From NCBI GenBank assembly GCA_963762565.1, contig CAVXLD010000001.1, positions 512,001 through 576,000 on the forward strand: a stretch of 64,000 bases of DNA. The letters run 5' to 3'. This document shows positions 5,369 to 53,348 of the stretch, in pieces. The DNA is from an uncultured Verrucomicrobiae bacterium (lineage in GTDB: Bacteria; Verrucomicrobiota; Verrucomicrobiia; Chthoniobacterales; JAFAMB01). How positions within the stretch are numbered: position 1 is the stretch's first letter; every line of letters begins with the position of its first letter. Made by a program: the position numbers and the translations under genes. The notes beneath the pieces were generated by a model. It saw only the letters and a list, made by a program, of their open reading frames with translations, was not told the origin of the DNA and searched no databases.

Positions 5369-5542
5369 GGGCGAACCGGCGAAAGGGCGAAACGGCGACG
5401 AGCATCTGTGTTCTGGCGCGCCTTCAGCGCTGTCACTTAATTTATAGCATACCTAGGCCTCGCAGACTCGGCCTAGGCTAAATTCTCTCAGCGCTTCGCG
5501 TCTTATTCGCCCCTTCGCCGTTTCGCCCATTCGCCGGTTCGC
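5369..5542. repeat. Inverted GGCGAANN octamer arrays wrapping a ~100-bp core (second copy at ~12581-12790)
   Basis: Core ttctggcgcgccttcagcgct...tacctaggcct...gcctaggctaaattctctcagcgcttcgcg aligns with ~12637-12728. Confidence 0.8.
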
Positions 5543-11203: not shown

Positions 11204-11341
11204 GGCGAAGGGGGCGCGAGACGGCGAATGGGCGAGACGGCGAATAGGCGAGTTCGAGGCGCGACAGAACCGGAGCTATCGATTCGCGCCTTTATTCGCC
11301 CCATCGCCGTTTCGCCGGTGCGCCGGTTCGCCGTGTCGCCC
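11204..11341. repeat. Inverted GGCGA-octamer arrays
   Basis: ggcgaatg ggcgagac ggcgaata... vs ttcgcccc atcgccgt ttcgccgg... Confidence 0.8.
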
Positions 11342-12500: not shown

Positions 12501-12790
12501 GCATCAAAATAAGGCCTCGCGCAGAGGTAAAGCATCAAAATAAGGGCCTCGCGCAGAGGGCGCAACGGACGCAGAGGGAAACGGCGAAGGGGCGAAACGG
12601 CGAAGGGGCGCCATCGTGCGCACAGGGTAGCACCCTTTCTGGCACACCTTCAGCGCTTGTTACCATTTTCTACGAATACCTAGGCCTGGCACACCTCAGC
12701 CCAGGCTAATTTCTCTAAGCACTTCGCGAGTTCGTTCGCCGTGTCACCCATTCGCCCAGCTCAGCCCACTCGCCCACTCGCCGTTTCGCC
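12501..12790. repeat. Direct duplication (12501-12527/12532-12559), CGCAGAGG-type repeat, and octamer-wrapped core element
   Basis: gcatcaaaataagg(g)cctcgcgcagagg twice; ~12546-12578 matches rc of ~24593-24624. Confidence 0.8.
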
Positions 12791-14033: not shown

Positions 14034-14127
14034 AGGCGAATCGGCGAAAGGGCGAATGGGCGTGGGCCACGGCTCAGCACATTGCCTTGAATCGCCGTTT
14101 CGCCCACTCGCCCTTTCGCCCATTCAC
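14034..14127. repeat. Inverted GGCGA-octamer arrays
   Basis: ggcgaatc ggcgaaag ggcgaatg vs tcgccgtt tcgcccac tcgccctt tcgcccat. Confidence 0.75.
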
Positions 14128-14145
14128 CTTGACGCCCATTCGCCT

Positions 14146-14174
14146 TTGACGGCGTTCCCGGCGTTGATTACGCT
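14146..14174 (+). promoter_or_regulatory. Putative leaderless sigma70 promoter
   Basis: TTGACG-N17-TACGCT-N5-ATG(14180). Confidence 0.7.
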
Positions 14175-18137: not shown

Positions 18138-19427
18138 TTAATCTGCAGGAAGGCTCTTAGGAATCACCCCGGGCTTGAACATGTCGGATAGATCCGTGGT
18201 ACCATCGAGAGTAGGATTCGCCGCATCATTCAAGAAACCACTGGGTGTATTCGCTCTCAGCCCGAATACTTTCTGCCAAGTGGCCAGATCCGAGGAGTGC
18301 GTGTAATCCTTCGAACTCGCGTAAGCATGCCCCTTAGCCAGATGCGAAATCACAATCAGGTTAATTGTGTGGGCGAAATCGTTCTTAAAGCCTTCGCTTT
18401 CATCCATCCAAATGACAATGACGCCGTTATTCCGATACGCCTCCGAGGCCATAATTTCAGGAATGACGATGGAGAGAAAGTGATCGCCTTCCGCAATCGA
18501 CGCCAAGTCGCTCCTGTAATGAACCCCCTGATAGACAAAGCCGCCCGCCAGGTAGGAATGCATGTCGTTGTACTCGTCCGGCGTAATCAAGTTGTACCGG
18601 GCGACGGTATTGTTCTGTAGGTCCGTAAATAGCTGCTGTAGCGGGGCGTAATGTTTCACCTTCTTGTTAGTGGTCCCGGTGTTATCGCCACCATTGGTAT
18701 CCGGGAAAAACAAGGTACCATCATGTTTGCAGGCAAAACTGTATTCATCGCTACCGTTAAACTCGTTCGTGTAATTGGGCGACGTCCCGCTGAAGGTTGC
18801 CAGGGGAACTGTCCAGAGGGACTTCGGAGCCACATTGCTGGTAGGAGCCCCTCCCAAATTAGCATTGCCGCCGTCCGTGTTCAGCAAATCGATATCCTCC
18901 TGGTAAGCCTTCCAGGTAAGTCCCACGGATTCCATCAATCCGGTCAAATGTTCCCCCGTTACGGTCGGGTTTGCCGCCAAATAGACCTGTATGGCCGGAA
19001 CTGAAGGATCGACGGCCGCGTACGGATCGTTGTCATTGAAAATGCCCAAGTTGGATCCCGCCTCTTGCCAGATATAGTTTGGCTCGGAAGGATGGATGCT
19101 GGGGTTTTTGCCGCTCGGGGTAGCAAGCGCGTTGTGATAAGCAGTCGCGTACGACGCTTCGTCCGAGTTGCTGTTTCCGGGTGTGACGAAGCTATTGAGA
19201 TAGGGAGCCGCCGGGCATTGGTAGAGCTGGTGTGGAGTTTTCTCACTGGCCGGCTGGGTCCAGTTATGATTTTCCAACTCGATATAAAACACGGCGCCGA
19301 TTTGTTTTTCAGGATTTACATCCTGCCCAAAGACTGTCGAAAAAAAGCACGTTGCCGAACAAGCGCTCGCAATTACACCAAGAATATTGCGGGCTGTCCC
19401 GATCGTGCGGAAGTTGATCGGAAGCAT
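18138..19427 (-). CDS. Secreted phosphoesterase-family (acid phosphatase/PLC-like) protein
   Basis: IELENH, HPSEPNY, KH, NDMH, WMDE, YTHSS motifs; signal-like N-terminus. Confidence 0.75.
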   Translation of the reverse strand: MLPINFRTIGTARNILGVIASACSATCFFSTVFGQDVNPEKQIGAVFYIELENHNWTQPASEKTPHQLYQCPAAPYLNSFVTPGNSNSDEASYATAYHNALATPSGKNPSIHPSEPNYIWQEAGSNLGIFNDNDPYAAVDPSVPAIQVYLAANPTVTGEHLTGLMESVGLTWKAYQEDIDLLNTDGGNANLGGAPTSNVAPKSLWTVPLATFSGTSPNYTNEFNGSDEYSFACKHDGTLFFPDTNGGDNTGTTNKKVKHYAPLQQLFTDLQNNTVARYNLITPDEYNDMHSYLAGGFVYQGVHYRSDLASIAEGDHFLSIVIPEIMASEAYRNNGVIVIWMDESEGFKNDFAHTINLIVISHLAKGHAYASSKDYTHSSDLATWQKVFGLRANTPSGFLNDAANPTLDGTTDLSDMFKPGVIPKSLPAD

Positions 19428-19592
19428 AGGGTTATCTTTTGTGTGTGGAGGGTTATTCAGGGTATCGCTGAGAGAAGTGTCGTCATGTTACGTTTTAGTC
19501 ACACAACCACAGTGGGCATTTGCTCGAGTCGGATTCCCTGGGCAGTTCGACTCTCAAAGACTCTCAAGGCGATTCTAGAAGGTGATTTTTGA

Positions 19593-20715
19593 AGGGTCAC
19601 GTCTTAACAAACAACTATTCTGGTCTTGACATCGTCACTTTCTGAACCCTAAGAGATCGGTGCTATGGCCCGGCCGACGAGATTGGATATTGCGGGGGGA
19701 TGGTACCACGTGGCGAATCGAGGTATCGAACGAAAGACCATCTTCCGAGGCCGCTCGGGGTACGAACACTTTATTGAGCTGATCAGTACGCTACCCCGGC
19801 GGTTCGGTTTGCGAGTGCACGCCTACGTGCTCATGCCCGATCACTATCATCTACAGATCGAAACGCCCAAGGCCAATCTGAGCCGGGCCATCCAGTGGCT
19901 GAACGTCAGCTATAGCATCTGGTTCAATAAGAAGCATCAGCGGGTCGGGCCGCTGTTTCAGGGTAGATTCAAGGCCATCCTGCACAATTGCTCCAGCCAC
20001 GCCCCAACCATTAACAAGTATATTCATCTTAATCCGGTTCGGGTGTGGCGCTCGGGTGGTCACGAGCGCCGGGCGGGTGCTTCGGACCAAGCAACTGCGG
20101 CCAAGCGCGGTGCTGCCCGAGTGGAAGCTCTGCGCGCGTACTCCTGGAGTTCATACCACTATTACAACGGCGAAGAGCGAGCTCCGCTCTGGCTGACCAC
20201 TCAGACCGTACTGGAGCTACTAGAGCCAGGCAGAAGAGCCACCACCCAGACGGCGGCCTATCGCCGAGAATTGGAACGGGCTGCAGCCGCGGATCAATTG
20301 GAAACGGATTGGAAGACTGAGCTCAAAGCCAGCCTGCTGCTTGGGTCAAGCGACTTTGTGGGGCGAATGAAAAAACGGCTGAGCGGTGATCGCCGTGAAC
20401 AGACGGCGTTAAGGAAGGCAAGCCAAGGGGCCTTAAGCTGGAATCGGATTACAGCGGCGGTAAGTCAGCTTTGGGACCAGGATTGGGAATTGTTGCGCAC
20501 GAGTTACGGTACCGGCGCCCTGGCGGCGGCGCTCTACTTGGCGCGTAATCACTCCGACCAGACCCTACGCGAACTAGGCGCCCTAGCCGGCGGGATGCAA
20601 TACCCTGCTGTAACCATGGCCATTCGTCGTTTTACCAACCGATTAAAAACCGATAAGACCTTGGCCGTAAAGGTAAAACAGTTGGAGAGAATGTTGCAAA
20701 TTAAGACGTGACCCT
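19593..20715 (+). mobile_element. TIR-bounded unit carrying a HUH/Y1 transposase
   Basis: AGGGTCACGTCTTAA (19593-19607) is the exact rc of TTAAGACGTGACCCT (20701-20715). Confidence 0.8.
19665..20711 (+). CDS. IS200/RAYT-superfamily HUH (Y1) transposase with C-terminal DnaA-domain-IV-like HTH
   Basis: YHVANRG, MPDHYHL (HUH), GPLFQGRF, YIHLNPVR (Tyr), WSSY; tail ALYLARNHSDQTLRELGALAGGMQYPAV. Confidence 0.9.
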   Translation: MARPTRLDIAGGWYHVANRGIERKTIFRGRSGYEHFIELISTLPRRFGLRVHAYVLMPDHYHLQIETPKANLSRAIQWLNVSYSIWFNKKHQRVGPLFQGRFKAILHNCSSHAPTINKYIHLNPVRVWRSGGHERRAGASDQATAAKRGAARVEALRAYSWSSYHYYNGEERAPLWLTTQTVLELLEPGRRATTQTAAYRRELERAAAADQLETDWKTELKASLLLGSSDFVGRMKKRLSGDRREQTALRKASQGALSWNRITAAVSQLWDQDWELLRTSYGTGALAAALYLARNHSDQTLRELGALAGGMQYPAVTMAIRRFTNRLKTDKTLAVKVKQLERMLQIKT

Positions 20716-20728
20716 GGTGGTACGGTCT

Positions 20729-21003
20729 CTCGCAAGCGAGGCAGTGCTCCACGGGCGGCAAGCCCTCTCGGCCTCGCGAGCGAGGCAGCGCTCCACGAGT
20801 GGCGACCCCTTTCGGCCTCGCAAGCGAGGCAACGCTCCACGGGTGCCGACCGCCTCGGCCTCGCAAGCGAGGCAACGCTCCACGGGTGCCGACCGCCTCG
20901 GCCTCGCGAGCGAGGCAGCGCTCCACGGGTGCCGACCGCCTCGGCCTCGCTAACTGTCGCGCCGCAGGCCTTGCGAAGGCGGAAGCGAGGCAGCGCCCCA
21001 CGG
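20729..21003. repeat. Tandem array of REP-like family B: units of 44, 44, 43, 43, 43 bp plus an interrupted sixth
   Basis: Units start at 20729, 20773, 20817, 20860, 20903, 20946; core GCCTCGC-RA-GCGAGGCARCGCTCCACG; related copies at ~2056 and 22770-22817. Confidence 0.95.
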
Positions 21004-21049
21004 TGTGGGCCCAGTTGCGGTCAAAAAGATTCGATGCGATAGGCTGCGC

Positions 21050-21400
21050 ATGCAGTCGCTTTTGGCTATTTTACAGCTTGCCGCGGTCGAAGTGAACGCT
21101 TGGAAGATTATCGGCTGGACCGGTAATTTGATCTTTGGGCTCCGGTTTGTTTGGCAATGGATCGCTTCAGAGAGAGCCAAGAAAAGCATTATTCCCCCGG
21201 GTTTTTGGGAGATTAGCTTGTTGGGTAGTATGATCTACACGAGCTATTTTATCTTTTATCGTCATGACTCAGTAGGCATCATTTCCAACCTCTTGCCTCT
21301 CCCGCTGTATGCGCGGAATGTATTCTTGCATTGGCGCCACGCACGGATCCATAAGAAAGAAGCGGAATCGGCCAAGGAAGCCGATTCAGTGGTGGATTAA
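21050..21400 (+). CDS. Lipid A biosynthesis N-terminal (LAB_N) domain membrane protein
   Basis: IGWTGNLIFGLRFVWQWIASERAKKSIIPPGFWEISLLGS. Confidence 0.8.
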   Translation: MQSLLAILQLAAVEVNAWKIIGWTGNLIFGLRFVWQWIASERAKKSIIPPGFWEISLLGSMIYTSYFIFYRHDSVGIISNLLPLPLYARNVFLHWRHARIHKKEAESAKEADSVVD

Positions 21401-21401
21401 G

Positions 21402-21579
21402 AACCGCGAATGAACACGAAGGGACCTGAAGGGAAACCAAACCACAGATGGAAAAGCATAAGTCGACGTTAACCTGCGTACATCTGCGCCCGCCCGCCAT
21501 AGCTTTAGCGACGGCTGGTTAATCTGCGGTTGGACTTAATTTCTCTTTGTTTTCGCGTTTATTCGCGCCCATTCGCGGG
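21402..21579. repeat. Nested inverted repeats (CGCGAAT-type outer, CACAGAT/ATCTGCG inner, small GCC-TAGC element)
   Basis: ccgcgaatgaacacgaa vs ttcgcgcccattcgcgg; aaccacagat vs atctgcggtt. Confidence 0.65.
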
Positions 21580-38574: not shown

Positions 38575-38771
38575 CGTATCGGCGTATGGGCGTGTCGGCG
38601 TGTGGGAGAAACGCTGGAGCAGCGACTACGCGCGACGCGAGTGGCCCGGCGGCGTGGTTCGGATGGGACCTATACGACCTATAGGACTTATAGGAGACAG
38701 CAGCGAAATGGGCCGGCTAGATCCGACCATTTTGCTGCCGTAGCCTGCGCCGCGGATCAATGCAGGTGCAT

Positions 38772-53028: not shown

Positions 53029-53348
53029 CGGCGTGTGGGCGAAACGGCGAAAGGGCGACGCGCCGGGGTCGGTAGGGCGAAAAACTCGGCGCGCCCAAAG
53101 CCTTGTTTTTTCCCCTGACACGTCCGCGCCGGTTTTGAGCCGCGCCGTGCGGCAGGCTTGCCCATGACGCAACTCGACACAGACGCTGGATTTAGGAACA
53201 GCGATTGATGATGCCAGCCCCACGGCGCGGCTCAAATCCGGCGCGGAACCGTAATTGAAAATGGCCTATCCTCGGCGCGCCGAGATTTTCGCCCTACCGG
53301 TCCTGGCGACGCTCGCCCTATCGCCCCGTCGCCGTATCGCCCCGTCGC
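53029..53348. repeat. Composite element, copy 2 (same IR1/IR2 as 34948-35270)
   Basis: gtagggcgaaaaactcggcgcgcc ... ggcgcgccgagattttcgccctac; cgcgccggttttgagccgcgccgtg ... cacggcgcggctcaaatccggcgcg. Confidence 0.85.

Follow-up and report, generated by a model that had tools for sequence, protein, structure and literature searches.

Genes that resemble those of tyrosine transposases associated with repetitive extragenic palindromes (REPs), known as RAYTs, and have flanking inverted repeats were described as TIRtrons, and their proteins as TIRYTs, by Di Nocera, De Gregorio and Rocco (2013; BMC Genomics 14:522, PMC3733652). That paper reports a GGGGWSAS motif common to the terminal inverted repeats (TIRs), a similar spacing between arms and gene, arm sequences that form small dispersed families including dimers and clusters, and genomes with several TIRYTs. 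Quentin, Siguier, Chandler and Fichant (2018; 10.1101/279083, PMC6006769) placed 20 of 26 published TIRYTs in the TnpA(REP)-like subclass 2.1 of the TnpA-Y1 superfamily, which they characterize by the class 2 Y---NP context together with a serine motif and a tail of Bac_DnaA_C/helix-turn-helix (HTH) type. They compared only the outer GGGGWSAS with the DnaA box, found no resemblance, and doubted that the HTH takes part in recognizing the ends. Here we analyze a unit of this type at positions 19593-20715 of a 64,000-nt window, by which we mean the whole stretch of DNA under study (positions 512,001 to 576,000 of contig CAVXLD010000001.1 from an uncultured Verrucomicrobiae bacterium). The unit is probably one intact, insertion-sequence-like TIRtron with a proposed division of labour between its Y1 and HTH domains.

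TIRtrons are widespread. The search for relatives gave 1035 at E ≤ 1e-10 among 8000 candidates scored, and the loci fetched for comparison came from several phyla. The window copy and its relatives supply precisely defined ends, an end sequence in two parts, natural mini-elements of 61 nt and multi-copy hosts, and they clearly predict which half of the end is read by which domain of the protein. The locus is otherwise ordinary.

Layout of the element and relation to described systems

The intact unit of 1123 nt contained one TIRYT gene and two inverted ends, and nothing else (Table 1). The two perfect 15-nt cores, complementary at 15 of 15 positions, were separated by 1093 nt. The best inverted match between the flanks of the open reading frame (ORF) scored 15, versus 10 for the best of 100 shuffled upstream flanks. 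Further inward both arms continued imperfectly, the left one to 19621 (CAAA-CAAC-T-ATTCT) and the right one to 20688 (TTTG-CAAC-ATTCT), giving arms of 28-29 nt including the imperfect inner part. The initial annotation, made from the sequence alone, had described an HUH transposase of the Y1 type, extended by a DnaA-like HTH tail and bounded by perfect 15-bp TIRs that extend imperfectly inward; Pfam, profile and fold searches bear this out, and the caac-t-attct and caac-attct patterns were read in the two arms. Its further remarks also held. The stop codon of the sole long ORF between the arms (TGA, 20709-20711) falls within the right arm, and a TIR-like sequence overlaps the −35-like box, where a GTC precedes TTGACA and gives GTCTTGACA, similar to GTCTTAACA of the arm. 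Direct reading of the flanks (...TTTTTGA before the left arm, GGTGGTA after the right arm) showed no direct repeat, and the absence of an evident target duplication at 19593-20715 was thereby confirmed. Inside a single window arm, direct reading showed no self-complementary hairpin except an ACGT tetramer, and Rfam gave no match at E ≤ 0.1 over window positions 19000-21500.

The 348-aa protein showed a Pfam Y1_Tnp match (E = 4.5e-14) at residues 13-121, and Bac_DnaA_C by Pfam alone was weak (E = 0.022). The best NCBIfam model was REP_Tyr_transpos (REP-associated tyrosine transposase) with E = 4e-13, below the cut-off of that model. In a 25-member family alignment H60, H62, Y119, N123, P124, W161, S162, S163 and Y164 were invariant, and the catalytic context Y119-I-H-L-N123-P124 corresponds to Y-x3-NP (Y---NP). 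The profile of the same 25 members, searched against the PDB, matched DnaA domain IV (8btg, E = 1.1e-6) at query positions 253-344. The AlphaFold model had a mean predicted local distance difference test score (pLDDT) of 64.6; the C-terminal domain reached 83-93 and the middle of the protein was poorly predicted. Foldseek aligned the model with IS608 TnpA (2vjv) and the E. coli RAYT (4er8) at template modeling (TM) scores of 0.69 and 0.71, respectively, and the C-terminal domain with the DNA-binding domain of M. tuberculosis DnaA (3pvp_B) at a TM score of 0.80 with a root-mean-square deviation of 2.3 over 93 columns (all TM scores on target). The protein is an IS200/RAYT-type Y1 HUH catalytic fold with a C-terminal DnaA domain-IV-type HTH.

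This architecture is not new; it is the already-named TIRtron/TIRYT layout. The TIR-flanked RAYT-like genes with GGGGWSAS ends, which the initial annotation had mentioned, are the TIRtrons of Di Nocera et al., mostly subclass 2.1 in Quentin et al. The window gene encodes a RAYT-like Y1 protein with HUH and a catalytic tyrosine, and it is flanked by TIRs rather than by REPs, the adjacent REP array being independent (see below). The window end AGGGTCAC fits GGGGWSAS at 7 of 8 positions, and the family consensus and the paralogue P3 carry GGGGTCAC. With the TIRtrons of the 2013 paper the locus shares GGGGWSAS, similar arm-gene distances, the 3' overlap, a dispersed arm family with dimers and clusters, and several TIRYT genes per genome, each with its own arms, and we see no defining difference from that description. 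The Y---NP context with a downstream serine motif (Y119...P124 and W161-Y164, all invariant), the long C-terminal extension of Bac_DnaA_C/HTH_23/HTH_28 type, detected by profile and by fold, and the lack of REP association match subclass 2.1 as Quentin et al. define it, an assignment by domain features alone rather than by tree placement. In contrast to that account, the inner arm half here consists of two T(T/C)AACA / TTCACA-type direct repeats, which are the likelier target of the HTH.

The catalytic fold, the HUH/Tyr chemistry, the lack of target duplication and the compactness are shared with the TnpA proteins of IS608 and ISDra2 and with the E. coli RAYT (2vjv, 2xma, 4er8). Those enzymes, however, lack an HTH and recognise hairpins, subterminal or of REP type, on a single strand, whereas here the ends are mutually inverted, no end has a hairpin of its own, and a DnaA-type domain is fused to the transposase. 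IS200/IS605 elements have subterminal hairpins and no TIRs, and the ends of the window unit are inverted repeats. Classical RAYTs in REPtrons (Nunvar 2010; Bertels and Rainey 2011) have REP/REPIN sequences on both sides, and here REP-like units lie on one side only. To the TIRtron description this analysis may add the bipartite arms, the sharp outer edge, the lack of target duplication, TTGAC at a fixed distance from the ATG, near-identical multi-copy members and a DDE insertion sequence that targets the arms, part of which may already stand in the figures or supplements of the published papers.

Conservation of the ends and movement of the unit

Two sets of loci were used. The first one comprised the window's genome (G000) and 40 relatives; with a gene match threshold of E ≤ 1e-20, a TIRYT gene match was observed in 22 of the 41 genomes, counting G000, and among the congeners in only 2 of 5, a patchy presence that agrees with mobility of the class. 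Arms scored above every shuffle in 11 of 16 distinct full-length loci of this set. The second set, from the genome_contigs collection, partly overlaps the loci of the first. Eighty loci were fetched, 14 were dropped (9 partial matches and 5 with short flanks) and 66 were examined, with arms taken as significant when they scored above all 60 shuffles. Significant arms were found in 53 of these 66 full-length homologue loci, and the conservation of the TIRs among homologues, which had been proposed as a check, is seen across several phyla. According to their records, the hosts belong to Verrucomicrobiota, Terriglobia, Desulfobacterota, Kiritimatiellia, Victivallales, Nitrospirae and Methylomirabilota, together with a Scalindua metagenome-assembled genome (MAG).

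The geometry of the 53 loci with significant arms was narrow. The unit length was 1016-1220 nt with a median of 1120 nt, the arm length had a median of 27 nt, and the left arm ended a median of 41 nt before the ATG. The right arm overlapped the ORF end in 49 loci, and the arms were perfect in 19. A consensus was made from 50 anchored loci, three having been dropped for anchor ambiguity (row L125 is mis-anchored), and reads GGGGTCAC[A/G]TCT t.AcATtt.ACAttt. Information content was about zero immediately outside the GGGG, which gives the arms a sharp outer edge. The arms were bipartite, with an invariant outer GGGGTCACRTCT followed by two direct repeats with a period of ~8 nt, and these inner repeats varied by clade (TCAACATT, TTAACATT, TTCACATT, TTCATATG and TTAATTAT). 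For target duplication, a zero-length match was obtained in 36 of 50 loci, similar to the shuffled pairing control. TTGAC occurred at the inner end of 31 of 50 left arms versus 9 of 50 right arms, and in 27 of these 31 left arms it lay 34-38 nt upstream of the ATG.

Near-identical copies were found in relatives. G009, from the same taxonomic family as the window's genome, carried five copies at 97-99% identity in unrelated flanks, and their homology started exactly at GGGTCAG and stopped a few bases past the right arm. The Scalindua MAG had two copies (97% over 1053 nt; L130/L135), and one Verrucomicrobiae MAG had another two (98.9% over 1131 nt; L078/L120). Wherever such copies exist in the relatives, the outer edge of the arm is the edge of the mobile unit. 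As these near-identical multi-copy units are bounded exactly by the arms, the TIRtron class moves, or is copied, as a whole unit delimited by its arms.

In the window's own genome the arm sequence is a dispersed family, which the initial annotation had overlooked. Its suggestion to look for other copies of the TIR gave nine exact copies of the window 15-mer in the 6.1-Mb genome, 13 at ≤1 mismatch and 29 at ≤2 mismatches; by arithmetic, the chance expectation for a given 15-mer in this genome is ~0.01. A 14-nt arm pattern had 51 matches, whereas its reversed form gave 7 and base composition alone would predict 9. One of the paralogues at 55% identity, P2, has its own 23-nt arms, GGGTCG[C/A]GTCTATACATTACACA, with one mismatch, and the broken paralogue P4 retains a P2-type left arm. 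Two or three 184-nt remnants on C12 consist of a left arm and ~30 codons, and further, more distant Y1 genes are present elsewhere in the genome. Dense co-oriented arms were observed together with TIRYT paralogues, broken copies and 184-nt 5' remnants in three regions (C12:526000-572000, C5:257000-296000 and C3:491000-521000), which look like hot spots or graveyards for TIRtrons.

The same genome holds mini-elements composed of two TIRYT-type arms and no gene. As single-stranded DNA (ssDNA) they gave long hairpins well below the shuffles, for example −19.3 versus −4.7 kcal/mol for a 61-nt unit. The copies of the 247-nt pair showed short flank similarity, which leaves their independence uncertain.

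Table 1. Coordinates of the element, of related units in the same genome and of other repeats in the window
Feature	Location	Strand	Remarks
Left terminal inverted repeat	19593..19621	+	Core 19593-19607, AGGGTCACGTCTTAA; imperfect inner part 19608-19621 with CAAC repeat unit
TTGACA, −35-like hexamer just inside left arm	19626..19631	+	39 nt upstream of ATG
TIRYT gene, 348 aa	19665..20711	+	Y1 HUH domain aa 13-121
HUH motif, H60-Y61-H62	19842-19850	+	Within TIRYT gene
Catalytic-type Y119 in YIHLNP	20019-20021	+	Within TIRYT gene
WSSY serine motif	aa 161-164		TIRYT protein
DnaA domain-IV-like HTH	~aa 253-344 (20421-20696)	+	C-terminus of TIRYT
Right terminal inverted repeat	20688..20715	-	Core 20701-20715, reverse complement of left core; overlaps the eight final codons (E R M L Q I K T) plus TGA
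43-nt tandem REP-like array	20729-20950		5.1 units; starts 14 nt past right arm
Further REP-like unit	20985		
Inverted pair of REP-like units	22772 and 22799	- and +	
Paralogue	C5:482180-483202		55% identity
Paralogue	C12:564447-565472		55% identity
Broken paralogue (P4)	C12:531056-531839		
Mini-element, 61 nt	C5:278586-278646; C5:290256-290316; C5:293949 onward		Gene-less; 3 copies
Mini-element, 178 nt	C1:1118090-1118267 (one copy)		Gene-less; 2 copies
Mini-element, 247 nt	C3:853122-853368; C11:238427-238673		Gene-less; 2 copies, 90% identity
DDE insertion sequence, reference copy	L136:145-1767 = G000:C3:491944-493566		
16-nt-period short tandem arrays	5506-5542; 11216-11252; 12558-12610; 14092-14151; 38575-38606; 53313-53348		

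A 1.62-kb insertion sequence was seen in passing and may be of value in itself, as its targets are the ends of a different mobile element. It has six copies at ≥99% identity, on C1, C3, C5 and C8, codes for a DDE transposase of 489 aa (DUF772 plus DDE_Tnp_1_6), and ends in 16-nt inverted sequences (GGGGCTGTTGCCCAAT / GGGCGTGTTGCCCAAT). Each of the six copies is inserted at a TWWA tetranucleotide within an arm, or a dimer of arms, of TIRYT type. Of 42 pattern matches to related insertion sequence ends, 21 abut arms; the rest include many weak matches that are not insertion sequence ends. One copy of the 61-nt mini-element is interrupted by this insertion sequence. Co-oriented arm copies could be read as a cassette array, a reading that we rejected, as they are explained by the DDE insertion sequence in the arms and by tandem insertions of insertion sequences. 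An attC-like nature of the arms was likewise rejected, with a mismatch at a conserved position of the attC core (RYYYAAC/GTTRRRY) and an element that has no integron integrase.

Proposed mechanism and competing explanations

In the mechanism that we propose, the Y1 domain would cut and rejoin ssDNA at the invariant outer block of the arms. This step is suggested by the Y1 HUH chemistry of IS608, ISDra2 and RAYT, by the lack of target duplications and by the narrow range of unit lengths. Cleavage would take place when the ~1.1-kb unit is single-stranded, for instance on the lagging-strand template, and the arms may then pair as a panhandle. Such a panhandle is possible, and sequence covariation alone cannot separate it from recognition of the duplex. 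Because the arms are bipartite and a DnaA-type domain is fused to the transposase, the HTH would read the two clade-specific, −35-like inner repeats of ~8 nt (TYAACA type) on duplex DNA, and each paralogue would thereby have ends of its own to recognise. With a standard promoter geometry, transcription would begin on the ATG or immediately beside it. Given the position of TTGAC, an HTH bound to the left arm would occlude the adjoining TTGACA and repress the nearly leaderless transposase mRNA. Binding of the double-stranded arms by the HTH together with autoregulation, which the initial annotation had suggested, would fit both the clade-specific inner repeats and the bias of TTGAC towards left arms. 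A wider reading is that TIRtrons are an autonomous insertion sequence family with hybrid end recognition (HTH on the duplex inner repeats, Y1 at GGGG in ssDNA), with promoter shut-off, and with ends that serve as a dedicated landing site for the DDE insertion sequence. We regard this wider reading as tentative and would not call it probable; if true, it would amount to two-level parasitism, with the DDE insertion sequence landing on TIRtron ends.

Several observations weigh against an intact mobile unit that works in this way. The cleavage site, the strand, the HTH target and the autoregulation are all points that we infer, and a literature search found no biochemical or genetic experiment on any TIRYT. 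The DHTTV residues of the DnaA recognition helix are replaced by EYPAV-type residues in the TIRYT family, and DnaA-box-like binding therefore cannot be assumed. The HTH sequences change in step with the inner repeats across clades; this covariation is suggestive but confounded by phylogeny, and we rejected it as evidence. The promoter scan of the + strand at this locus found no full sigma-70 promoter, none being called at TTGACA because there is no acceptable −10. Arms were not significant in 13 of the 66 loci, four of which still had a GGGTCA-type repeat at or below threshold. Paralogue P3 has a left arm only, the window TIRYT gene is single in its genome, and its closest paralogues are just 55% identical. 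Activity was judged from Logan contigs of four soil metagenome runs, which cannot exclude rare events. In X2 a 6-kb contig extends across both left flank and gene, showing a single difference, and X5 and X6, from other studies and related strains, gave diverged contigs in which the gene's 3' part is followed by the right arm and the downstream gene. No joint that skips or inverts 19593-20715 occurred in the contigs of the four runs, rare events being beyond the reach of contigs. These data fit a window copy that is at present fixed in its lineage, with rare events possible.

A rival explanation is a domesticated, immobile gene, whose arms would be operator or host-function sites (for self-regulation or ssDNA processing) and which would be inherited vertically, as proposed for classical RAYTs. 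The single copy with its distant paralogues agrees with this, as does the same downstream gene standing beside the TIRYT in related strains of other soil studies with no rearrangement joints. The ORF is moreover intact with all catalytic residues kept, and on this argument it would be under selection. Such vertical inheritance is difficult to combine with the near-identical, arm-bounded multi-copy units of the relatives, which include a member of the same taxonomic family, or with the gene-less mini-elements that carry the same ends in the window's own genome. At this locus no TIRYT match was seen in the five congeners, only two of which have any match at all, and the 5' remnants and broken copies look like the decay of a selfish element. 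We therefore consider domestication unlikely. The arms could instead be crossover sites of a 1.1-kb invertible switch, as the perfect flanking inverted repeats and the ability of HUH enzymes to rejoin DNA might suggest, and an inversion mechanism had been raised in the initial annotation. That idea found no support. Both the −35-like box and the entire gene are enclosed by the arms, and nothing beyond them would be switched by an inversion; the contigs of the four runs contained no opposite-strand joint at either 19593-19607 or 20701-20715, and multi-copy relatives in unrelated flanks require transposition, not inversion. An invertible segment is thus scarcely credible.

The remaining alternative is that the gene is a RAYT serving an abundant 43-nt REP-like family, of which a tandem array lies directly downstream of the right arm and was overlooked by the initial annotation. 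The family has the core GCGAGGCAGCGCTCCAC with the palindrome GCCTCGCRAGCGAGGC, and its 287 core matches at 233 loci of the genome comprise 207 single units and 10 arrays of 3-9 units; the best NCBIfam model of the protein, too, is that of REP-associated transposases. Several findings speak against this. A REP unit lies within 150 nt of only 1 of the 51 arm-pattern sites, and none of the other six Y1 genes has one within ~670 nt, the broken P4 having one ~670 nt downstream. Tandem REP arrays of 3-9 units stand at nine other loci that have no TIR. In the congeners a single REP unit (L051 and L052) or degenerate remnants (L053 and L054) lie upstream of LAB_N at loci with no TIRYT match. Among the 66 homologue loci, each searched for its best flank repeat, that repeat was the TIR in 53, and flanks of REP type were not noted. 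No RAYT associated with the 43-nt family was identified, and ssDNA folding of two REP units was not better than shuffles (z = −0.73). The array also varied in copy number among metagenome contigs, one X5 contig skipping 173 nt. A REPtron is accordingly very improbable; the 43-nt array is an unrelated neighbour and not part of the TIRtron.

Genomic setting of the window copy

In the window, a phosphoesterase gene and the TIRtron lie between a kumamolisin-like gene and LAB_N, as seen by comparison with the congener loci L039-L055. The LAB_N-NifS pair was conserved in five of five congeners with different genes upstream, and the phosphoesterase gene, the left neighbour of the unit, was not beside LAB_N/NifS in any of four congener contigs. 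The TIRYT was unmatched upstream of LAB_N in the five congener loci, of which four show ≥700 nt of this region and L053 only ~185 nt, and no clean empty site could be aligned among them. Because the sequence upstream of LAB_N differs among the congeners, this region is, from comparison of the loci, a rearrangement point.

Scattered through the window are several short tandem arrays whose units repeat every 16 nt and resemble one another (TCGCCC.TTCGCC.. or the complement).

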